64,000 nt of DNA from Parcubacteria bacterium C7867-006 (GCA_001189155.1 LFCP01000004.1:133618-197617); one strand, 5' to 3'. Positions 6,805-55,642 are shown, counted from the first letter of the stretch. Notes: generated by a model not told the origin, from the letters alone. Numbers and translations: made by a program.

Positions 6805-7188
6805 CTACGTGAGAAGGCGCAAGAGCTTCCTCAAACCATCGCGAAACCTCCTGCGAGTCATCCGGTCGACCGAGGTGAGTTCCTCGGGAAGTATCGTTCC
6901 GCTCACCCTCGACGAAAACGAAAAACCATGAATCCCCAGGAACCGTTCAACAGCAATGATCACTGAACGACGACACGAGCCAAGGAGTGGGTAGACCTCG
7001 ATGATCATCTTCACCTCATCCTTGGTCAGACCCTTTGCGACTCGGTAGGGACTGAAGAACATGTGAAGCACTCCAGCCTCCTTCTTGGAGAGCCGATAGC
7101 GCTTCCTGTAGCGATCCAGAACACCGTCTTGCGCGTTCCGGAGTCTTGCTTCCGAAAATTTCTTCAACTTGATCACTCGCTCCTCCAT
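6805..7188 (-). CDS. GC-rich ORFan (second gene of a two-gene cassette)
   Basis: 127 aa. Its ATG lies 1 nt after the TAG of the upstream ORF (translational coupling). The composition is far more G+C-rich than the flanks. No family recognised. Confidence 0.55.
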   Translation of the reverse strand: MEERVIKLKKFSEARLRNAQDGVLDRYRKRYRLSKKEAGVLHMFFSPYRVAKGLTKDEVKMIIEVYPLLGSCRRSVIIAVERFLGIHGFSFSSRVSGTILPEELTSVDRMTRRRFRDGLRKLLRLLT

Positions 7189-7189
7189 T

Positions 7190-7540
7190 CTAGCTCTGAA
7201 TCTGCCCGACTTCAGCAGCCATGGCCTCCTCGTGTTTCCTCATCTCATCGGCTGCTGCTCGGAAGAACACCTTCAGGCCATCAGGATCCTTCTCCTCGCG
7301 AATCTCATCAGCAACCCAGGAGAGATCGCTCGACGAAAGCCCGAGATCCGGCAGAGCAGTCTTTCCGCTCTTCAGGATTTCTCTAGCTTTCTCGAAACGT
7401 TCCCTTCTCGCATGTAATTCACGACGAGCCAGCCTGAGACCTCCGGGAAGGAACTCGTTCAGGTAGGTGCGCACGGCCTTGCCCACACACATGTGAGCCA
7501 CTCCGCGAAGCAACTCATCTGTTAGTTGGTTGTCGCTCAT
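7190..7540 (-). CDS. GC-rich ORFan (first gene of a two-gene cassette)
   Basis: 116 aa. A G-rich SD-like CCGGGGG lies 7 nt upstream of the ATG, with an AT-rich TTGATT-N17-ATAGTT promoter-like sequence further upstream. Line 7201-7260 is 36/60 G+C. Confidence 0.55.
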   Translation of the reverse strand: MSDNQLTDELLRGVAHMCVGKAVRTYLNEFLPGGLRLARRELHARRERFEKAREILKSGKTALPDLGLSSSDLSWVADEIREEKDPDGLKVFFRAAADEMRKHEEAMAAEVGQIQS

Positions 7541-9232: not shown

Positions 9233-9508
9233 ATGAATCAGCGGGCTATCAGAAAGCTTCCATTTCCACCGGCGAGTCACTTCACATTGGAAATGGTCAG
9301 GCAGATCAAGGCAATCCCTGATGAGGAAATCAGTTACTCCGAACAAGAGATTGTCTGGATGGAACTGGCAATTCAGAATCTTGAGTACATGATTGCCTGT
9401 GCGAAATCACTCGGCATCAAGACGACCGAGATGGATGAGCACAAGGCTCTGTACGAGGCAGTCATTACCAAGAACAATAACCTGACCGCCTCAGACCGCT
9501 CACGCTAA
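9233..9508 (+). CDS. GC-rich ORFan cassette
   Basis: 91 aa. SD AAAGGA lies 5 nt before the ATG. It is followed by the GC hairpin GACCGCTCACGC..GCGTGGGCGGTC. No family recognised. Confidence 0.5.
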   Translation: MNQRAIRKLPFPPASHFTLEMVRQIKAIPDEEISYSEQEIVWMELAIQNLEYMIACAKSLGIKTTEMDEHKALYEAVITKNNNLTASDRSR

Positions 9509-11603: not shown

Positions 11604-11642
11604 TGTACTAGAAGAACATTGAAACCTTTCACAGGAGAGACG

Positions 11643-12653
11643 ATGTCTACGACTGAAGGCCTAGAGGCCCCGCTCGTCACGATACTCGTCCCCTGCTATC
11701 AGTACGGACGGTATCTACGCAATTGTCTGGAAGGAATTTTCGCCCAGACAATCATCGACCAAATATCGGTTGAAATCATCGTCATCAACGATGCATCAAC
11801 CGACAACACTGACGCTGTTATGCGTGAGTTCACGGACCCGCGTATTCACTACATCCGCCACGACAGAAACCGTGGACTCTGCTACACACTGTCAGAAGGA
11901 CTCACCCTCGCAAGAGGTAAGTACTTTACTCGGATTGACGCGGACGACAGATGGAAACCTCACTTTCTGGAAGTAACACTTCCTGAGCTTGAGAGATACC
12001 CTGATGTTGCTCTCGTCTTCGGTGATGTTGCCCATGTTGATGAACAAGGAAACATCATCAACGAGGAAAGTACAATCGCTCGCTCACTTGAGGTTCACGG
12101 CGATCGTGATTTCAAGGGAGACAGATTTCTTTCACAAGTCGGCGAATGCACAATCGGCACCGCTGGTGTGATAGGAAGAACCGAAGCTTGGCGTAAGGGC
12201 CTACCTTTCCCCAAATGCTTTACTTGGGAGTCCCCGTCTGACTGGTGGCTGAACATCATGGCCATCAGAGATGCAGACGTGTACTACAAGAAGGGTATTC
12301 TTGGGGAATACCGCATGCACAGTGCGAGTATGACCCACCAACAAGGTAGTGTTGATGCGGTCGATATTGAACAGACCACCATCGGCGCTATCAATGAAGC
12401 GTTTAGCGGGGTAAATCTGAAAAGAGAACACCGCCTTGCGCGACGCATGATCTACGCCAACGCATGGACCACCCTCGGGAATATCAATTTCGAAAAAAAC
12501 CGAGGTAAAGATTCGAGGAGGTGCTACGCCAACGCAGTGCTCTGGCGACCGGACTATGTTTTAAGAAAGTCCATCGCTCGACACTTCCTGTCGAGTCTCC
12601 TGCCTCGGAAACTGTACGAGAAAATAAAGAAAGGGGTGAAGAAAATGTTCTGA
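11643..12653 (+). CDS. Family 2 glycosyltransferase (GC-rich cassette)
   Basis: Motifs are ILVPCYQ.., NDASTDNT and RIDADD. The start is set at ATG 11643 after AGGAG. Line 11701-11760 is 30/60 G+C. Confidence 0.8.
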   Translation: MSTTEGLEAPLVTILVPCYQYGRYLRNCLEGIFAQTIIDQISVEIIVINDASTDNTDAVMREFTDPRIHYIRHDRNRGLCYTLSEGLTLARGKYFTRIDADDRWKPHFLEVTLPELERYPDVALVFGDVAHVDEQGNIINEESTIARSLEVHGDRDFKGDRFLSQVGECTIGTAGVIGRTEAWRKGLPFPKCFTWESPSDWWLNIMAIRDADVYYKKGILGEYRMHSASMTHQQGSVDAVDIEQTTIGAINEAFSGVNLKREHRLARRMIYANAWTTLGNINFEKNRGKDSRRCYANAVLWRPDYVLRKSIARHFLSSLLPRKLYEKIKKGVKKMF

Positions 12654-12685
12654 GCCGACCAACGCTAACGCGAAGGTCGGCTTTT
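12654..12685 (+). terminator. GCCGACC-N14-GGTCGGC followed by TTTT
   Basis: The hairpin starts directly after the stop TGA at 12651-12653. Confidence 0.7.
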
Positions 12686-12697
12686 ACTATATAGAAA

Positions 12698-13720
12698 TTA
12701 TTTATCGCCTATTATATTTACTAAAGCAAGTTCCAATGGAAGAGAAGGTATGTATGCACCGTTTGTTTTTTCATATGCGGTTAGAAGTTCAACCAAATCA
12801 GATGAAGTTAGATTCCCCTCGCCTTTTGCTAGAGAACCAACAAACTCAAATTCTTTTTCTGACAAATCATCTTTTATGATATTTCCAGCATTAAACCGAA
12901 CAAGTAGAACCGCTCGTGCAGTGTGGAGAATAAGTTTTAAGAAAACAGACATATCTATGTTTTGACTTACTGATTTTTTAACCGCATCTAGTCCTAAATT
13001 TAAATCTTTATTAACTATTGAAAAAACTACATCATGAACCATGTCGATAGCTGGAGCTCCTGTAACAAGACGAACTTCCTCCTCACTTATAGTTTTATTT
13101 TTAGAGTATGCTAAAACTTTTTGAAGTATTCCGAGTGTATCCCGAAAAGAACCGTCACCGAGCAAAGCAATAAGCTCTGCTGATGCATCATCCACTACTG
13201 AACCTTCTTGTTTTGCAATACTGGTTACAACTTTTTTCAAAACATCTTGAGATGGTTTTTTGAATGTGTATGTTTCGCAACGGGACAAAACTGTTTCTGG
13301 AATTTTGTGAGTTTCTGTTGTAGCTAGAATAAAAACAACATGAGATGGTGGCTCCTCCAAAGTTTTGAGAAGTGCGTTTGATGCTGATTTTGAAAGCATA
13401 TGAACCTCGTCCAAAATATAAACTTTATATTTTGATTCAAAAGGCAGTGTAAAAACAGAATCATTTAGATTTCTAATATCTTCTACACTAGTGTTTGATG
13501 CCGCATCTATTTCATAAATATCATTTTTACTTGTTCCTATAGCTGCAGCAAATATTCTTGCTACAGAAGTTTTTCCCGTTCCCCGTGTTCCAGAAAAAAG
13601 GTATGCGTGGGAAATTTCTCCAGATTTTGCTTCTGCTTCTAGAACTTTAACTATGTGGTCCTGACCAACAACTTCAGAAAACTTACTTGGGCGGTATTTT
13701 CTATATAGTGCTTCTGACAT
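12698..13720 (-). CDS. dnaX: DNA polymerase III gamma/tau subunit (short form)
   Basis: YRKYRPSKFSEVVGQ.., Walker A GTRGTGKTS, DEVHMLS and the SRC motif. Confidence 0.85.
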   Translation of the reverse strand: MSEALYRKYRPSKFSEVVGQDHIVKVLEAEAKSGEISHAYLFSGTRGTGKTSVARIFAAAIGTSKNDIYEIDAASNTSVEDIRNLNDSVFTLPFESKYKVYILDEVHMLSKSASNALLKTLEEPPSHVVFILATTETHKIPETVLSRCETYTFKKPSQDVLKKVVTSIAKQEGSVVDDASAELIALLGDGSFRDTLGILQKVLAYSKNKTISEEEVRLVTGAPAIDMVHDVVFSIVNKDLNLGLDAVKKSVSQNIDMSVFLKLILHTARAVLLVRFNAGNIIKDDLSEKEFEFVGSLAKGEGNLTSSDLVELLTAYEKTNGAYIPSLPLELALVNIIGDK

Positions 13721-13780
13721 AGTAAATAGTATATCTTATTGTGAGTTTGAGACAAAACATATAATTAAGTAATAATTGGA

Positions 13781-13809
13781 AAAGTGCCTCCTGGACAGAG
13801 GCACTTTTT
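13781..13809. terminator. Bidirectional hairpin GTGCCTC-N7-GAGGCAC flanked by A- and T-runs
   Basis: 7-bp stem located 20 nt after the stop of ORF 13830-14150 (minus strand). Confidence 0.6.
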
Positions 13810-13829
13810 CGTGCAGAACGAAGAACAAA

Positions 13830-14150
13830 TTACCCCTTTCGGTGGCCGTTGTCATGGCGATTGTTATCCAGACCCAGATCGATTCGCCTGGACCGAGGCA
13901 GTCGAGGGGCCTCGGTCTGAGGATGACCAAGTGGCTTGACCTTGCTGAGCTCTTGAAGCCCAGCAAAGATCAACTTCCTGACTTCATGACGGGAGGGTTC
14001 GTGCTCGAACATCTTCTTGAACTCCCTGAACAGGAATTCGGGAGTCTCACTGACCAACTTCTTCTGACAGTCCTCGCACACTCCATAATGGCCACTGGTG
14101 AACTTCGGGTCCTCATACAAATGATTACCCTCAACACACATCAAAACCAT
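13830..14150 (-). CDS. GC-rich ORFan cassette (Cys/His-containing N-terminus)
   Basis: The start is set at ATG 14150 (MVLMCVEGNH..) with GAGGGGG 6 nt upstream. The promoter is TTGACT (14204-14209)-N18-TATTCT with TGn. The opposite-strand ORF 13776-14180 lacks comparable signals. Confidence 0.5.
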   Translation of the reverse strand: MVLMCVEGNHLYEDPKFTSGHYGVCEDCQKKLVSETPEFLFREFKKMFEHEPSRHEVRKLIFAGLQELSKVKPLGHPQTEAPRLPRSRRIDLGLDNNRHDNGHRKG

Positions 14151-14220
14151 TGGAACCCCCTCTACACAATCCTTACTTGAGAATATCATATTCAAAAAAC
14201 ATGAGTCAATTTTTTTATAT

Positions 14221-14512
14221 AAAAAAACGAGCCGAAGCTCGATGTAAAGACCCGACTCCACCAATTATGAATCTGGCCAGGATGCAAAATTGGTGGAGTG
14301 GAACGGACTTACCTATCCGTATTACCAAAAACTAGGATAGGTCGGTTACTGATACAGACGCTAGAGATCTCCGTGACTCGCTAGCATCATATCGAAGGTG
14401 AAGGTCCGCTATCCTTCAGGGTGGGAGGACCCTGGGGATTTTTGAGCGATCACCACACAAAAACCAGTGATGTTCTACAACAACGGAGATTGTCGTCACC
14501 ACCAGTTTTCCG
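14221..14512 (-). ncRNA. Candidate ~290-nt non-coding transcript (unit 2), unidentified
   Basis: Promoter TTGACA (14542-14547)-N17-TATTTT. Terminator CGAGC-TTCG-GCTCG followed by T7 (14221-14241). Internal stems are TTGAGCG/CGCTCAA, CAGGGT/ACCCTG, the three-way set GGATAG/CCTATCC/GGATAGG, and a 12-bp stem ACTCCACCAATT/AATTGGTGGAGT. Confidence 0.4.
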
Positions 14513-14549
14513 CTCAACAAAATACATTATTAAATAATTATTGTCAAAT

Positions 14550-14724
14550 AAAAAAACCGTCACATTGACGGCAAATTTCAATGGCATAGTGCCCCCGTCA
14601 ATAAGGTGACGAGCCATTATTGACGGGGGCAAGAGTAACAAAGCTACTCTCTTGTGCCTGATGTGGGTGATTTCTGGTGCCCTGACGGAGTTGAGGACTA
14701 ACACTATCAACACCACACCTTCGA
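14550..14724 (-). ncRNA. Candidate ~175-nt non-coding transcript or attenuator-like leader (unit 1), unidentified
   Basis: Promoter TTGACA (14753-14758)-N16-TACTAT (14731-14736). Perfect 14-bp hairpin at 14591-14630. Terminator GCCGTCA-ATG-TGACGG followed by T7. The terminator arm can instead pair with the 3' arm of the 14-bp hairpin (8 bp, ATTGACGG/CCGTCAAT). Confidence 0.4.
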
Positions 14725-14761
14725 GGAGACATAGTACGAGAAAATAATATTTTGTCAAATT

Positions 14762-15760
14762 TTATAAACCTTTTATATATTCCTCTATTATTTCCCCCAC
14801 TTCATTTGAATCCTTTGCCTCCATCAGTTTCATTCGAAGTTCCTTTGCCCCATCCCATCCATGAACGTAAGCTTTATAATGTTTTTTCATTATTGCAAAA
14901 CTTTTGTGTGAAAGAGTTTTTTCAAAAAGTTTAGTGTGTTCAACCATTACCCGAAGTCTATCTGGTATTGAAACATCCTCTCTGCTAGTTGTTTTACTAA
15001 ACAACCAAGGGTTTCCGAAAATAGCCCTGCCGAGCATAACACCATCACAGCCAGTCTCGAGAACTTTGGCTTCAGCATCTTTCAAATCAATGACATCCCC
15101 GTTTCCAAAAATTAGCGTCTCACTTTTATTACCGAGTGAGTCAACAAAACTATCACGTATTTCAACAGCTCTTTTTATATGCTCCCATCTTGCAGGAACC
15201 AAAGACATTTCTTTTCTTGTCCGAGCATGGATAGTAATAACAGCAGGATTTGTTTCTAATAGTGCTGGCAACCAATTCTCAAGTTCGTTTTTGTTATAAC
15301 CAATTCTGGTTTTTACACTTACAGGAATATTTTTACCATTCTTACTTGCGCCTCTTTTTGCGGCCAGAATTATTTCTTGTGCAAGTTTTAGGTTTTTTAT
15401 TAGTCCAGCTCCAGCCCCCTGCTTCTCTATGCTTTTATCTGGACAACCCATATTTATATCTATCCCATCAAAACCTAAATCAACTGCAAGTTCAGCAGCC
15501 TTTTCCATTATCTCTGGTTTGCTCGTAAAAAACTGTGCAACTATAGGTCTCTCTGCTTCTGTATATGACAGATCTTTTATTAAAGCATCATACCCACCAA
15601 GAAAAAGTCCGTCAGCAGAAACGAACTCAGTCCATGTAACATCAGGTTTTCCATATTTTGAAATAATACTTCGAAAAGCCGAGTCAGTTACATCCGCCAT
15701 AGGAGCAAGAACCATTATCCCCTTAGGTTTATTATTTTTTAATTCTTTCCAAAAATTCAT
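14762..15760 (-). CDS. tRNA-dihydrouridine synthase
   Basis: VLAPMADVTDSAFR, NMGCP and a TIM-barrel FMN pattern. Confidence 0.8.
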   Translation of the reverse strand: MNFWKELKNNKPKGIMVLAPMADVTDSAFRSIISKYGKPDVTWTEFVSADGLFLGGYDALIKDLSYTEAERPIVAQFFTSKPEIMEKAAELAVDLGFDGIDINMGCPDKSIEKQGAGAGLIKNLKLAQEIILAAKRGASKNGKNIPVSVKTRIGYNKNELENWLPALLETNPAVITIHARTRKEMSLVPARWEHIKRAVEIRDSFVDSLGNKSETLIFGNGDVIDLKDAEAKVLETGCDGVMLGRAIFGNPWLFSKTTSREDVSIPDRLRVMVEHTKLFEKTLSHKSFAIMKKHYKAYVHGWDGAKELRMKLMEAKDSNEVGEIIEEYIKGL

Positions 15761-15761
15761 A

Positions 15762-16562
15762 CTATATATTTAAAAATAGACTAGCTAGTGTAACCGGCCC
15801 AACTCCACCAGGAACTGGTGTGACTAGAGAAGCTTTTTCAAAACAACCAGGGTCAATATCGCCAACTATCTTTCCAGCTTGTTCGCTAGTCCCAGCGTCT
15901 ATCAAAACCACTCCATTTTTTATCATATCTGGCTTAATCATATGAGGAGATCCTGCACCAGAAATAATAACATCTGCAGACATTATCAAACTTTTGCTTA
16001 AATTGGAATCTGTATTTTTATCTATAGTATTAAAATAGATACCTTTTAGTGTAAGCATATTTTGAACCGGTTCACCCACCAACCGACCATTACCAATAAC
16101 TAAAATATTTTTATTATTCAAATCCACATTATAAAAATCTAAAATCTCAGAAACAGCTTTTGCGACAGGTGGGGTCTTATTTAATCTCCCATTTTTATAT
16201 TCATTTTTTGCTTTTTCACTCAGGATATCTATATCTAACTCAACTGGAACCAGATTTAAAACATCTTGAACTGGGAAACTTGAAGGTAGAGGCAACTGTA
16301 TAACCACCCCGGCGATATCTTGTTCCACTATACTGCTAACGATCGAAGAAACTTCTTCAAAGGACAGATTTTCTCTATCTTTAAAAACTCGAGTTGGAAT
16401 ACCTAAAGACTCAGCAAATCTACATTTCATTTTTATAAACTGTTTACTAGCCAAATCATTTCCAAATATGATAAAACAAACCTCTTTTTTGGGTTTGTTT
16501 TTTAAATTATGGGCAATATCTTTCTTTAATTTATCCGAAACCAATTTCCCATCAGCTATCAT
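15762..16562 (-). CDS. folD: Methylenetetrahydrofolate dehydrogenase/cyclohydrolase
   Basis: VIGNGRLVGEP.., TPVPGGVGPVT. Confidence 0.85.
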   Translation of the reverse strand: MIADGKLVSDKLKKDIAHNLKNKPKKEVCFIIFGNDLASKQFIKMKCRFAESLGIPTRVFKDRENLSFEEVSSIVSSIVEQDIAGVVIQLPLPSSFPVQDVLNLVPVELDIDILSEKAKNEYKNGRLNKTPPVAKAVSEILDFYNVDLNNKNILVIGNGRLVGEPVQNMLTLKGIYFNTIDKNTDSNLSKSLIMSADVIISGAGSPHMIKPDMIKNGVVLIDAGTSEQAGKIVGDIDPGCFEKASLVTPVPGGVGPVTLASLFLNI

Positions 16563-17446: not shown

Positions 17447-17480
17447 AGATTTTTCAATTTTTATTTTTTAGAGCACGCAT

Positions 17481-17498
17481 AATCGCAAGCTTGCGATT
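17481..17498. repeat. 18-nt perfect palindrome AATCGCAAGCTTGCGATT, extended by GAGCA/TGCTC
   Basis: Read directly from the sequence. It lies 35 nt upstream of the ftsQ-like start. Confidence 0.8.
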
Positions 17499-17655
17499 TG
17501 CTCTCACTCAACGATCAAGAAAACGATTCTCTCATTCCAGAGCCCTCTCGCAAACTCGGGCTCCGCCCTCAAACAGTGCTCCGGGCTTCTTCTCATTCGT
17601 TGTCGTTTTCTAATCGTTTCCGTAGTCTCCAAAAAACAAAAATCTCAAATAGACG

Positions 17656-18939: not shown

Positions 18940-19022
18940 ATTTCAGATTGTAACAGAATTTTTTATATATGAGAATAGCCGGTCGCCCGGCTATTTTAAT
19001 CATCTCACCCCCCTTTGCTCGT

Positions 19023-19268
19023 TTAAACTTTCTTGTACCTACCAACAAGTTCGGACTTGATGGCGTACACAACGCCACCATCGCCAATAGTCCGCATTGG
19101 CACAACAAACATTCTCTTCGTGCTCTCGTCATTCGGGTTGATCCTCACCTCCTCTTTCCTCTGTCTTTGAATCTCGACAGTGGTTCCAGAATACCAAACA
19201 CCGATCCAGACGAGCTCTCTCAAGCGCTCTCTGTAAACAGAGATGTCGTCGGTAAGTCTAACAATCAT
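19023..19268 (-). CDS. GC-rich ORFan cassette
   Basis: 81 aa. AGGAG lies 5 nt before the ATG, TTGACA lies upstream, and the hairpin AGCCGG-GCGA-CCGGCT lies downstream. No family recognised. Confidence 0.5.
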   Translation of the reverse strand: MIVRLTDDISVYRERLRELVWIGVWYSGTTVEIQRQRKEEVRINPNDESTKRMFVVPMRTIGDGGVVYAIKSELVGRYKKV

Positions 19269-19337
19269 AAAGTCTCCTGATAATTAGGTTACCTTTTTAA
19301 ATAGTGGTGTCAATTATTTTGCTATACTATATATATT

Positions 19338-30363: not shown

Positions 30364-30398
30364 AAAAAGCCGTCCGAGTAAAAGTAACCTCGGACAGG
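30364..30398 (-). terminator. CCGTCCGAG-N10-CTCGGAC(A)GG hairpin with a T-run on the minus strand
   Basis: Located 22 nt after the stop of ORF 30420-30626. Confidence 0.6.
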
Positions 30399-30419
30399 CC
30401 TTTCACTCTTGGACAGACT

Positions 30420-30626
30420 TCAGAATTCGAAGATTGGACGCGGGATGAGGATCTGCTCTGTTCCAGCGACCCTCATAGAGATGTGCTTTTCACCACCACA
30501 GTGTCGAAAGACGACAACACCGCGAGTGTTGTCTGGGTCGTTCTGCACATAAACGACAGTGCAGTTGTTGACCTTGTCACCAACTTGAAGCGAGCTCCAC
30601 TGATCGCTGGACATCTCGTTAGACAT
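30420..30626 (-). CDS. GC-rich ORFan cassette
   Basis: The start is set at ATG 30626 (MSNEMSSDQW) with GGAGG 5 nt upstream. The promoter is TTGACT-N17-TAACAT. 68 aa, no family recognised. Confidence 0.5.
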   Translation of the reverse strand: MSNEMSSDQWSSLQVGDKVNNCTVVYVQNDPDNTRGVVVFRHCGGEKHISMRVAGTEQILIPRPIFEF

Positions 30627-30710
30627 CGCGGCCTCCAAAATTGTTCCAACTATTATGTTAGTTCTAAAAAAGTTACTAGTCAACAAAAATCCCCTTGCGG
30701 GGAATCTTTG

Positions 30711-38549: not shown

Positions 38550-38634
38550 GCCCGGATGGCGGAACTGGTATACGCGCACGACTTAAAATCGTGTCTCGAA
38601 AGGGATGTGGGTTCGATTCCCACTCTGGGCACCA
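38550..38634 (+). tRNA. tRNA-Leu (anticodon TAA), CCA encoded
   Basis: Acceptor GCCCGGA/TCTGGGC, anticodon loop CTTAAAA and a long variable arm. Confidence 0.9.
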
Positions 38635-38654
38635 GAAGAAAAACGGAGTTTTTT

Positions 38655-43502: not shown

Positions 43503-44834
43503 ATGTCTGGACTAACGATGCTGTCGCTCGTCTTGACGGCACTGTTTCTCCTCTTCGCATTCTACCAGTCGAGGCCGAGCAAAACAGCCAAACCTGAAGA
43601 AGGACAAGAGAAGAAGTCGTCAAACGAACGACACAACCTTTGGTATCACCTGGGGTTCGTCGATGACACACCGAACCTGATTCGTCAGGTCGTCGCTGGA
43701 AGCGCAAAAAGCGGCCGGCCGATCAGGTACTTTGGGAACCTGCACGACGGGGTTATTGATGAGGCCACTGGCATCATTACATCCAACCCTAACCCACCCC
43801 TCCTTTCGGAGGGTTGGTTCCTGAATTTGATCAGGAAACACTTCGGCAAACGCTGGTGTCGCATTCCGATCATCCAGCATGTGAAGCCTTTGACGATTGA
43901 CCGGGTGGTCAGCAAGGACACCAAGTCAACTGTCAACGAACTCTCCGATGAACTTGACGCCTCAACAGTCGTCAAGGAAGGTCTCTACCGACTGATTCTT
44001 CGCCCAACCCTTCACAAGGATGTTGACGCGAAGAACAACATCCGGTTTAGCGTAATCAGTTACGCTGTTCTGGAAGTGTTCGACGCCAAACCGGCGTTCA
44101 ACATCTACCCGGACAGCTACTTGATCACTGTCAGCAAACTGATCTCTGCTTATCTTTCGAAGAATACCTTCAAACTTTCGTACGATGAGTACAAAGAGCG
44201 AGGGAACTCCTTCGAAAAAGAGCAGATCGATGAGTTGAACGGCGTGCTTCTCAGTCTGGGAATTCGGTGCAAGGAACTTCGTATGGGCGACCCTGAACTC
44301 AACAAGAGTGTTCAGGAAAGCCTTGAAAAAGAAGCCAAGGCTGAACAAGAAGCCAAGGCTCAGAAACGAAAGGGTCAGGGCCAAAAAGACTACGATACTC
44401 TCGTGTCCGAAGGCCAGTCCCAAGCAATCAGGAATCTGGCTGCCGCCAAGGCATCCAGGTTCTCTGAACTCATCAACCTCTACAAGAACGAAGGCTTGAC
44501 TGGGTCTGAAGCAGTGGACAGAGCAAATGCAATGATCTCAGCCGAGTTCAACGCAGATGCTGTTCGACAGCTTCAAGGAACCTACGTCGCTTCAGGTAAC
44601 GGCGTTCAACTTGCCGTTATGGAGAGAAGACCAAGTGCAACTACAAGTTCGACTACCGAAGCTGCAGCTCAAGCAGCGCCTACTGGCAGTCAGTCAGTGG
44701 GCCAGGCCTCGGCTCAACCAGCTCAACCTGTGGCTCAAAAGCCTATGGCTCCGAGCACAACCCAGGCTGGTCAGACTCCGCATCAGAATCAAGGCAGGGG
44801 TCACAAAGACAAGGGCCGCCGCAACAAGAAATAA
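43503..44834 (+). CDS. GC-rich membrane-anchored protein with an SPFH/band-7-like core and a low-complexity Ala/Gln/Pro/Thr tail
   Basis: N-terminal TM helix. LGIRCKELRMGDPELNKSVQESLEKEAKAEQEAKAQ and downstream GQSQAIRNLAAAKA resemble SPFH C-terminal blocks. Line 43561-43620 is 30/60 G+C. Confidence 0.45.
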   Translation: MSGLTMLSLVLTALFLLFAFYQSRPSKTAKPEEGQEKKSSNERHNLWYHLGFVDDTPNLIRQVVAGSAKSGRPIRYFGNLHDGVIDEATGIITSNPNPPLLSEGWFLNLIRKHFGKRWCRIPIIQHVKPLTIDRVVSKDTKSTVNELSDELDASTVVKEGLYRLILRPTLHKDVDAKNNIRFSVISYAVLEVFDAKPAFNIYPDSYLITVSKLISAYLSKNTFKLSYDEYKERGNSFEKEQIDELNGVLLSLGIRCKELRMGDPELNKSVQESLEKEAKAEQEAKAQKRKGQGQKDYDTLVSEGQSQAIRNLAAAKASRFSELINLYKNEGLTGSEAVDRANAMISAEFNADAVRQLQGTYVASGNGVQLAVMERRPSATTSSTTEAAAQAAPTGSQSVGQASAQPAQPVAQKPMAPSTTQAGQTPHQNQGRGHKDKGRRNKK

Positions 44835-44949
44835 ACGGTCCAACACCATCGTTGCGGTCATTGCGATCATCACGCTGATTATCGCGAAGATCGCAACTAG
44901 CGTCTTCCACTTTCTGTCGGAGATTGGTCTTTGGTTCAAAGCGGAAGCT

Positions 44950-45825
44950 ATGAACTACTATCAAACTCCCAGTGGTGGACTGATTAGCAAGGTAATACTG
45001 GTGGTTCTCCCGGTTGCATCATTTGCGCTTGCGTACGTGATGTATCGGAGGAACCATCCAACTTCTCCGAGGTTCAAATATCGTAGTAGCCGAAGTTCGA
45101 AAGACTTCGCCGCTGCTGTGATGATGCCGTTTGGCCTGGCCATCGGCGTCGGAATCCTCTGGGGAGTTGTGTACTTCCTGGCTTGGGGGCCTGGAATTCT
45201 GCACTACTTCTCTTTCCCTATCTGGGGAAAAGCGGAAGCTAGGATGAGCACTCCAACCAACAGTGGCTTCGTCGACAAAAACGAAGTCCACCGTCGGACG
45301 GGAGAGTTCTGGTATTCCAACTTGCCACCGACCGAGGCCAAGGAGATGCTCGACATCGCCACGGAAGAGTCACATTTCCAGCAATTCAACACTGATGGGA
45401 GTGTCTTCACCGGCGTGGACGACCCAGCCGACACGGGCGTGATGCAAATCAACGTCCGTGAGAACCAGAAAGACCTGATAGCGTGGGGGCTCAACGTCAA
45501 CACTCTCGAAGGAAATCTGGAAGCGGCCAAAAGGCTTCGTCAGAAATACGGCACGAAGCCTTGGCAACGGACGGTGGATAAAATCAAAAACCGTCCGTCG
45601 CAGATAATCACCATCAAGGTGCCAAAGGAAGGTCGCAGTGAAAGGTTTACCCCCGACGGCAGATTCTGCCAGGGTCAAACCGATCTTCCAGTCACCGTAT
45701 GGGACGACAAAGGTAGGAGCCACCCAATGACTCCGACCAGCGTTCCAACTGTTCCGTCGTTGTGGTATGAGTACTCCACTCCAAGTGGAGGCTCACTCCC
45801 AACGATCACCATTTCATGCAGGTAA
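44950..45825 (+). CDS. GC-rich membrane-anchored lytic transglycosylase (SLT-domain) protein
   Basis: Catalytic block TEESHFQQFN and GVMQINV. The start is set at the first ATG after the upstream stop. The ORF-track start 44557 would overlap the upstream gene by 278 nt. Confidence 0.6.
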   Translation: MNYYQTPSGGLISKVILVVLPVASFALAYVMYRRNHPTSPRFKYRSSRSSKDFAAAVMMPFGLAIGVGILWGVVYFLAWGPGILHYFSFPIWGKAEARMSTPTNSGFVDKNEVHRRTGEFWYSNLPPTEAKEMLDIATEESHFQQFNTDGSVFTGVDDPADTGVMQINVRENQKDLIAWGLNVNTLEGNLEAAKRLRQKYGTKPWQRTVDKIKNRPSQIITIKVPKEGRSERFTPDGRFCQGQTDLPVTVWDDKGRSHPMTPTSVPTVPSLWYEYSTPSGGSLPTITISCR

Positions 45826-45831
45826 CGCAAA

Positions 45832-45866
45832 GCGCGGAGACCCTTCGGGGCCCTCCGCGCTTTTTT
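45832..45866 (+). terminator. GCGCGGAG-N13-CTCCGCGC followed by TTTTTT
   Basis: Located 6 nt after the stop TAA at 45823-45825. Confidence 0.8.
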
Positions 45867-45886
45867 CATATCTGAATTTTGTGTTG

Positions 45887-55270: not shown

Positions 55271-55591
55271 TCAATCGTTTTCGCGTTCGAACTCGTCGTC
55301 CTTATGATCCTTCCGACGCTTTTTCTCGACCGACAGTTTCTTTCGCTCGAGGATCTGGACGAGTTGTTCCGCCATCTCCTTGTGGTGTGATGGCAAACGA
55401 CTCGGCCAACTCTCAAGCCTAGAATGTACGAGAGCGATGAGCTCGTCGTGACCGGTCCGAATATCGAGCCTCATCATGAACCTCATGAAGTGGAATTCGA
55501 TACCCGTATCGATAGAAGCCGTTCGCATCTCCTTGATGAACGCCTCCGAAATCGAAAGCTCCTCGTCATCCTCAGACACTCGCTGCGCCAT
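55271..55591 (-). CDS. GC-rich ORFan cassette (acidic/basic helical protein)
   Basis: The start is set at ATG 55591 (MAQRVSEDDE) with AAGGAG 6 nt upstream. The promoter is TTGACT-N16-TACTCT. 106 aa. Confidence 0.5.
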   Translation of the reverse strand: MAQRVSEDDEELSISEAFIKEMRTASIDTGIEFHFMRFMMRLDIRTGHDELIALVHSRLESWPSRLPSHHKEMAEQLVQILERKKLSVEKKRRKDHKDDEFEREND

Positions 55592-55642
55592 ATGTACTCC
55601 TTCAGTCTGCCAGAGTAACACTTTAATCGATTTAGTCAATTT

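Follow-up and report, generated by a model that had tools for sequence, protein, structure and literature searches.

Which elements occupy the gap between dus and dnaX in Parcubacteria bacterium C7867-006, an uncultured member of the candidate phyla radiation (CPR), and are they regulatory leaders or genes in their own right? We analysed a 64,000-nt stretch of DNA (hereafter the window; positions are window coordinates), which has a GC content of 37% and encodes a Dus protein 100% identical to one named for this bacterium. On the minus strand the genes run in the order serS, an FtsQ-like gene, folD, dus, the gap region and dnaX. A first-pass annotation had placed in the gap two back-to-back units, U1 and U2, each delimited by a promoter and a terminator, had ascribed to U1 an attenuator-like alternative pairing, and had noted a GC-rich open reading frame (ORF) beside U2. 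We consider it likely that U1 and U2 each constitute an independent gene for a structured small non-coding RNA (ncRNA), with its own sigma-70-type promoter and intrinsic terminator, that both are accessory, and that neither is a leader or an attenuator. This reading is based on transcription signals, the lack of coding potential, a conserved structure with covariation, and a mosaic of presence and absence among related genomes.

Relatives of the locus were collected at two distances. We fetched 160 related Paceibacteria loci via their Dus proteins (at most 81% identical), and neither blastn nor nhmmer found any similarity in them to U1, U2 or the small-ORF region. Closer relatives (Dus 85–90%) were reached via the protein database and exact-protein look-ups, and two more via homologues of the small protein encoded beside U2; individual loci are referred to below by L numbers. 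In these closer relatives the gap consists of back-to-back units, each made of a TTGAC-type promoter, a GC-rich RNA of 170–330 nt and an intrinsic terminator.

All elements of the two units described in the first-pass annotation are present in the window (Table 1), as is the third promoter that it assigned to the small-protein gene. The U1 promoter abuts the dus stop codon, and each terminator is followed by a complete promoter (full TTGACA). Over positions 12500–16000 we counted 16 promoter-like sites versus 7.9 ± 2.6 in shuffled sequences, and 9 terminator-like sites versus 2.3 ± 1.4. We also searched all 64 kb for strong promoters with a hairpin and a T-run in the next 60–600 nt. The scan returned three units, namely U1, U2 and one small protein gene (30364–30683); U1 and U2 are the only non-coding promoter-to-terminator units of this kind in the 64 kb. 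Across L162, L172, L188 and L189 the promoter hexamers, their spacing and the terminators are kept while the spacer sequence changes. By reading, the U1 promoter is TTGACG-N17-TACTAT in L188 and TTGACT-N16-TAGTAT in L172, and the terminator lies in the same place in both. The U2 promoter is ~89% identical to that of L162 over 47–49 nt, while the RNA body has diverged; its hexamers and N17 spacing are, again by reading, unchanged in L162 and L189.

U2 was found in three genomes (the window, L189 and L162), and all three copies fold into the same five hairpin domains followed by a terminator. The window RNA folds with z = –5.9 and none of 200 shuffles folds as well; homologues of the units gave z values of –6.2 and –4.3. 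Over 312 nt, U2 of the window and its L189 copy share 81% identity; for dus the value is 78% and for the remainder of the region, dnaX included, 79%, and the constraint on U2 is therefore comparable to that on coding DNA. In L162 the promoter, the 5′ end and the 3′ hairpin with the terminator are kept, and the middle has diverged. Between the window and L189, 55 substitutions break 5 of 100 pairs, whereas 27 ± 3.3 would be expected at random (0/2000 simulations), and nine pairs have changed on both sides. The held-out L162 copy is recovered at full length (E = 1.5e–8) by R1, a covariance model based on the window and L189 copies. In the three-sequence alignment 92% of cells are paired, versus 31–44% in slid controls, and 19 pairs carry changes on both sides versus 8.4 ± 2.1 in shuffles (0/500); these values come from an alignment fitted to a model whose structure was derived from the window sequence. 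MAFFT places certain hairpin arms out of register, namely H1 of U2 in L189 and He of the window U1, and some apparently broken pairs are therefore alignment artefacts. The 12-bp stem that had been noted in U2 is present. A three-way set of competing pairings had been proposed for the same unit. Its CCUAUCC/GGAUAGG helix corresponds to H4 and is backed by a double compensatory change in L189; the competing GGAUAGCGG pairing survives in L189 through wobble pairs only (by reading), and the sequences of the competing set were not found in the aligned L162 homologue.

U1 is a short member of a family that always forms the first unit after dus in the six genomes that carry it. Its RNA folds with z = –4.9 (0/200 shuffles fold as well) into a 5′ hairpin, Ha, and a 3′ domain in which a closing stem (GGCA/UGCC) is combined with hairpins Hd and He. 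He is the perfect 14-bp hairpin recorded earlier. The homologues in L188 and L172 are of a longer form, ~290 nt, which runs from a 5′–3′ closing stem and Ha through two additional middle hairpins to Hd, He and the terminator; the closing stem has its 3′ strand between He and the terminator. Neither the middle hairpins nor the long closing stem is present in the window U1. We built one covariance model from L188 and L172 only (R2) and another from the sequences of five other genomes (R3), with the window U1 held out of both. It was found by R2 at E = 4e–6 and by R3 at E = 2e–5, and R2 also matches the first units (“a”) of L167, L162 and L171 over Hd and He. In an alignment of five sequences (L188, L172 and the “a” units) the Hd–He module is homologous, with compensatory changes at 11 of 29 pairs. 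With the window row added by hand, the six-genome alignment has 92.5% of cells paired and compensatory change in 18/29 pairs, and every one of the six sequences retains pairing at all 20 core pairs of Hd and He. The family is fast-evolving, and its core is, as modelled, a three-way junction of Hd and He just before the terminator. A wider family was rejected, since R2 and R3 matched neither the other first-slot RNAs (x in L173, y in L168 and L177) nor the RNAs of L001–L004 and L081–L083; R3 had no match in L001–L160.

Among the three U1-type copies, those of the window, L188 and L172, one block alone is invariant, GGGCACCAGAAA, located within the apical region of Ha. In the window and L188 it is preceded by a 5-bp stem, and reading of three “a”-type sequences did not reveal it there. 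An 11-mer of the block equals the 3′ end, the encoded CCA and the first trailer bases (GGGCA-CCA-GAA, 38627–38637) of tRNA-Leu(UAA), the sole tRNA with an encoded CCA among the nine of the window. In L172 the match extends to 14 nt. By our own estimate, ~0.03 exact matches of an 11-mer would be expected by chance elsewhere in the 64 kb. ARAGORN found no tRNA at the block, and a blastn-short search of the window tRNAs against all units returned only noise apart from it.

Coding potential was looked for in several ways. On neither strand do the homologues have in common an ORF of 12 aa or more with a ribosome-binding site, and gene callers called no gene in the homologous stretches. The one ORF previously noted across the units (102 aa), which would have to cross a terminator and a promoter, is spurious: it spans two units that occur separately in L188 (U1) and L189 (U2). 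Searches for known RNA families were equally negative. With the Rfam 15 library (4227 families; cmscan), only nine tRNAs were found in the whole window at the gathering score, three chance-level hits of 14–19 bits and nothing credible in 13600–14900 at E ≤ 10, and nothing in the dus–dnaX gaps of nine related loci at E ≤ 1. ARAGORN detected no tRNA or tmRNA in the U1/U2 region. The earlier failure to match either unit to a riboswitch, tmRNA, RNase P, signal recognition particle (SRP) or 6S RNA is thus borne out by the Infernal/Rfam search. tRNA genes interrupted by group I introns have been described in Patescibacteria (PMC13011429); we considered a group I intron as the content of the units and rejected it after Rfam scans that included RF00028 found nothing in them. 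In viral contigs the U2 hairpin pattern had no hits and a U1 motif had 10, which is the number estimated for chance; phage and plasmid records gave a 33-nt low-complexity match only. No paralogues of either unit were found elsewhere in the window, and the unit families have no k-mer of 10 nt or more in common. Overall, U1 and U2 are new in that nothing in Rfam 15 matches them and in that searches of the 160 related loci and of the viral, phage and plasmid collections turned up no homologue beyond a narrow Parcubacteria clade.

The order of dus and dnaX is conserved in 102 of the 160 loci, with a gap of 0–2900 nt that is shorter than 115 nt in 26 loci. Among the closer relatives the gap contains different arrays: U1, U2 and the small protein in the window; U1 and the small protein in L188; U2 and the small protein in L189; U1 and another small ORF in L172; a (U1 family), b, U2 and d in L162; a, a2, b and the small protein in L171; x and d in L173; and y with a small ORF in L168 and L177. 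L162, L171 and L172 have flanking genes that are 87–92% identical at the nucleotide level (88–91% for L162 versus L172) and yet carry different arrays. The small-protein cassettes of L188 and the window are 91% identical versus 79% for dus, and unit d, a non-coding unit of ~260 nt, is 87% identical between L162 and L173 versus 74–82% for the flanks. Close relatives thus carry different combinations of at least seven unrelated RNA units, and the gap is therefore a hot spot of turnover. Junctions between units regularly consist of a T-run followed by (A)TTTGACAA. No integrase was seen among the flanking genes, and no direct repeats or paralogues were found. These comparisons point to gain, loss and recombination of whole units and not to drift alone.

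Could the pairing in U1 make it a transcription attenuator or a riboswitch-like leader, with the 14-bp hairpin opposing the terminator and read-through being conditional? The alternative pairing suggested in the first-pass annotation does exist: the 3′ arm of He is complementary to the 5′ arm of the terminator over 8–9 bp (–12.9 kcal/mol), and a weaker version is found in L172 (–9.0 kcal/mol). However, He itself is worth –26.6 kcal/mol and forms first during transcription, the terminator stays in the minimum-energy fold when the 5′ arm of He is blocked, and no upstream sequence competes for that arm. In L188 the alternative duplex is weaker still (–6.1 kcal/mol). A full promoter comes next, not a regulated ORF in the same transcription unit, what follows U1 differs between genomes (U2, the small-protein gene or another small ORF), and no riboswitch, T-box or leader family was matched. 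We rejected this candidate, since the alternative pairing is neither energetically competitive nor conserved and no downstream gene depends on read-through; an attenuator role for U1 is extremely improbable. It is only slightly easier to see in one of the units a highly divergent housekeeping RNA (SRP RNA, a 6S/Ms1-type RNA, RNase P RNA or tmRNA). In Bacillus and many other bacteria the classical place of the SRP RNA gene is directly upstream of dnaX, and the units share this position, have their own strong promoters and terminators, and are of a fitting size (175–290 nt). A precedent is Ms1 RNA, which was found through gene synteny, suggesting weak sequence conservation (PMC9130861). Yet no such family was hit even at E ≤ 10, no SRP domain-IV motif was seen by reading, and the predicted folds are multi-branched, not rod-like. 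Presence is moreover patchy, with U1 absent from L189, U2 absent from L188, L171 and L172, and a dus–dnaX gap of less than 115 nt in 26 of 102 related loci; this counts against a housekeeping RNA, which as an essential molecule would be expected in the sister genomes too. We regard such an identity as very unlikely.

Two further explanations deny the units the status of RNA genes of their own. They might be mRNAs for very small proteins, such as a type I toxin, or RNA partners in a toxin–antitoxin or defence module with the neighbouring small protein. Strong promoters, highly structured RNAs of 170–300 nt, the 5′–3′ closing stem of the long U1 forms and a strain-variable tandem layout beside small proteins of no assigned function would all fit. 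We nevertheless find this unlikely, given that the homologues have no ribosome-binding-site-equipped ORF in common, that neither the sequence nor the self-matches of the window contain ToxI-type tandem repeats, that the small proteins have no significant PADLOC or PHROGs hit, and that RNA units and small proteins combine freely rather than in fixed pairs. Alternatively, the units may be non-functional, as GC-richer foreign fragments or decaying genes in an insertion hot spot whose signals arose in AT-rich junctions. The great variability of the gap across the 102 loci and the many patches of 48–56% GC in a 37% GC genome agree with this. Against it, helices are maintained through compensatory changes, U2 is as conserved as its coding flanks and unit d more so than its own, promoter hexamers and spacing persist through changes of the spacer, and similarity to phages and plasmids is confined to the low-complexity match. 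We deem it unlikely that the units are non-functional.

We thus return to the reading of U1 and U2 as stand-alone RNA genes, several aspects of which nonetheless call for caution. Both units are known from sequence alone and their host is uncultured. The families are very small, with three distinct sequences for U2 and six for U1, and the pairing counts are inflated in that structures were derived from member sequences and alignments were fitted to models. A very short peptide gene below our ORF criteria would likewise show a consensus promoter and a terminator. We can name no target, partner protein or phenotype, and for neither U1 nor U2 did predicted pairing with the translation start regions of dus, dnaX and the small-protein gene reach significance (z from –1.1 to +1.5). 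All of these points weigh against the reading that we favour.

If U1 and U2 are RNA genes, each would be transcribed from its own promoter and end at its own terminator. The RNAs would then be expressed and act in trans, most likely by protein binding or by pairing via conserved single-stranded blocks; of the possible roles, that of accessory trans-acting small RNAs seems to us the most probable. The dus–dnaX gap of this Parcubacteria clade is, on this reading, a variable array of self-contained RNA units and small-protein genes, with units being gained, lost and recombined between close relatives. More speculatively, the gap might be a cassette-like “RNA island”, analogous to a defence or accessory island, in which at least seven unrelated structured RNA families and three families of small proteins, all equipped with a promoter and a terminator, are exchanged among lineages by recombination at AT-rich terminator/promoter junctions. 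Its RNAs may serve conflict or host interaction, and U1, by presenting the 3′ end of tRNA-Leu(UAA) (GGGCA-CCA) in its apical loop, could be a decoy for a factor that binds the tRNA acceptor end. This extended scenario is doubtful and we offer it as a conjecture.

The small ORF between U2 and dnaX had been called an ORFan. It is not an orphan, as it has homologues at 92, 75 and 58% identity as well as more distant ones with a CxxC...CxxC pattern. The distant members have these four cysteines and the copies of the window, L188 and L189 have three, the window protein having lost one. Judged by these homologues, the ORF is a real gene of a small zinc-ribbon-type family, with 5 cluster representatives among 1.84 billion proteins. 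It has no significant match in Pfam, PHROGs or PADLOC (best PHROGs/PADLOC E-values 0.04–0.05). Its AlphaFold2 model is of low confidence (mean pLDDT 57), insufficient for a search by fold. The promoter slot in front of it, AAAAAATTGAC...TATGATA, is conserved, and its cargo differs between genomes. The window, L171, L188 and L189 have the small protein there and L172 has a different small ORF; in L162 and L173 the slot is occupied by unit d, which is non-coding.

Several observations were made beyond the two units. The third unit of the window scan, directly downstream of tRNA-Tyr, is another GC-rich small gene, with a TTGACT promoter, a GGAGG ribosome-binding site, a 66-aa ORF (51% GC) and a strong terminator. 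Patches of 48–56% GC (Table 1) mostly overlap ORFs; one is a GT2 glycosyltransferase that adjoins dnaX and also flanks dnaX in L173. Their composition suggests an accessory gene pool of different base composition. A 209-nt intergenic stretch between serS and the FtsQ-like gene (43–46% GC) contains hairpins and lacks both an Rfam match and a consensus promoter; a leader or a further structured RNA may be encoded there. In distant relatives (Dus 74–81%) the gaps, of 42–51% GC, also contain promoter/terminator-delimited RNAs of 180–480 nt. These are unrelated in sequence to U1 and U2 and have no Rfam match, and those of L081 and L082 are 88% identical in their 3′ half. Gaps of still more distant Paceibacteria (L021, L047, L037, L102 and L076) contain ORFs of 130–500 aa, some of them common to several loci, which by eye resemble ordinary cellular enzymes and a lysine-rich small protein. 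On the strength of these ORFs the dus–dnaX junction appears to be a general insertion site.

Table 1. Positions of the features discussed, in window coordinates unless a related locus is named.
Feature	Locus	Position	Strand	Remarks
dnaX (clamp-loader subunit)	window	12698–13720	minus	downstream flank; Pfam PF13177, E = 8e–35
Terminator-like hairpin after small-protein gene	window	13778–13808	minus	AAAAGUGCCUC...GAGGCACUUUU; conserved in L188 and L189
Small-protein gene (earlier “GC-rich ORFan”)	window	13830–14150	minus	106 aa, zinc-ribbon type, basic C-terminus
Small-protein gene promoter	window	14180–14209	minus	TTGACT at 14209
U2 unit	window	14547–14221	minus	promoter to terminator
U2 promoter	window	14547–14519	minus	TTGACA-N17-TATTTT; 10/12 matches
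U2 RNA	window	14221–14512	minus	~290 nt; five hairpin domains, then terminator
U2 hairpin H1	window	14460–14509	minus	
U2 hairpin H2	window	14397–14454	minus	
U2 hairpin H3	window	14351–14393	minus	
U2 hairpin H4	window	14311–14342	minus	
U2 hairpin H5	window	14251–14302	minus	
U2 terminator	window	14241–14221	minus	hairpin 14241–14228, then T7
U1 unit	window	14758–14550	minus	promoter to terminator
U1 promoter	window	14758–14731	minus	TTGACA-N16-TACTAT; 10/12 matches
U1 RNA	window	14550–14726	minus	~175 nt
U1 5′ hairpin Ha	window	14660–14719	minus	apical block at 14671–14682
U1 3′ domain	window	14583–14658	minus	closing stem, Hd and He
U1 hairpin Hd	window	14631–14651	minus	
U1 hairpin He	window	14591–14630	minus	
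U1 intrinsic terminator	window	14572–14550	minus	GCCGUCA-AUG-UGACGG + U7; hairpin 14572–14556, then T7
dus (tRNA-dihydrouridine synthase)	window	14762–15760	minus	upstream flank; Pfam PF01207, E = 3e–61
Intergenic stretch, serS to FtsQ-like gene	window	17447–17655	minus	
Third unit of the scan	window	30364–30683	minus	
tRNA-Leu(UAA)	window	38550–38637	plus	
Patches of 48–56% GC	window	6805–7540; 9233–9508; 11619–12653; 18969–19280; 43503–45886; 55271–55639		
Small-protein family member	L168	4334–4645		
Small-protein family member	L171	4704–4988		
Unit d	L162	4765–5035		under the promoter that in other genomes serves the small-protein gene
Unit d	L173	3848–4115		as in L162
RNA of distant relative	L001	5000–5840		
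RNA of distant relative	L002	5110–5630		
RNA of distant relative	L003	5080–5310		
RNA of distant relative	L081	4000–4510		
RNA of distant relative	L082	1815–2300		
Gap with ORFs	L021	4973–6008		
Gap with ORFs	L047	5099–7018		

In the CPR/Patescibacteria, bacteria with tiny genomes and a presumed lifestyle of attachment to other microbes, non-coding RNA biology has to our knowledge been little studied. U1 and U2 add two undescribed structured RNA families (at least seven with those of the relatives) that have transcription signals and covariation support, and they define a locus at which RNA genes turn over between genomes with ~90% identical flanks. The models R1–R3 could seed new Rfam families. 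If the RNAs are expressed, even very reduced genomes would invest in a variable, strain-specific set of structured RNAs, and the locus would be a natural starting point for work on accessory-RNA function in episymbionts.

How do U1 and U2 compare with known systems? Like attenuators and riboswitch leaders of the T-box or trp type, U1 has a stable hairpin upstream of an intrinsic terminator, one arm of which is able to pair with that terminator. Unlike them, it has no regulated ORF within the unit, its alternative pairing is uncompetitive and unconserved, and it matches no leader family. With the SRP RNA gene (scr/ffs) the units have in common the position upstream of dnaX, the autonomous promoter and terminator and the size range, but there is no match to Rfam, a library expected to hold bacterial SRP models, no domain-IV motif by eye, and the units are dispensable in sister genomes. 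The RNA-polymerase-binding RNAs 6S and Ms1 are similar in having a poorly conserved sequence, a conserved structure, a fixed syntenic place and a length of 180–300 nt. They differ in that the predicted folds of U1 and U2 are multi-branched, without a rod and central bubble, and in that the locus carries several unrelated RNAs whose presence is patchy.

At the level of the locus, integron cassette arrays and defence islands likewise present a fixed site at which close relatives carry different small self-contained units. In contrast to those, no integrase was seen among the genes flanking the dus–dnaX gap, the hairpins inspected showed nothing resembling attC, every unit comes with a promoter and a terminator of its own, and the cargo is mostly non-coding RNA. 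The raiA, OLE, ROOL, GOLLD and HEARO RNAs are GC-rich structured RNAs in AT-rich genomes to which no function has been assigned. U1 and U2 resemble them as GC-enriched intergenic blocks with a multi-helix fold in an AT-rich genome, but have no match in Rfam and a much narrower distribution. Finally, stand-alone small RNA genes in tandem are known from OmrA/OmrB, PrrF1/PrrF2 and LhrC1–4. U1 and U2 depart from these in being mutually unrelated rather than paralogous, in being long, with 5–6 helices, in lacking a known seed/target pair or chaperone, and in their reduced-genome CPR host. They resemble them in being intergenic and arranged head to tail, each with a sigma-70-type promoter, an intrinsic terminator, a length of 100–300 nt and no ORF, and in combining a narrow phylogenetic range and fast sequence drift with a retained structure.

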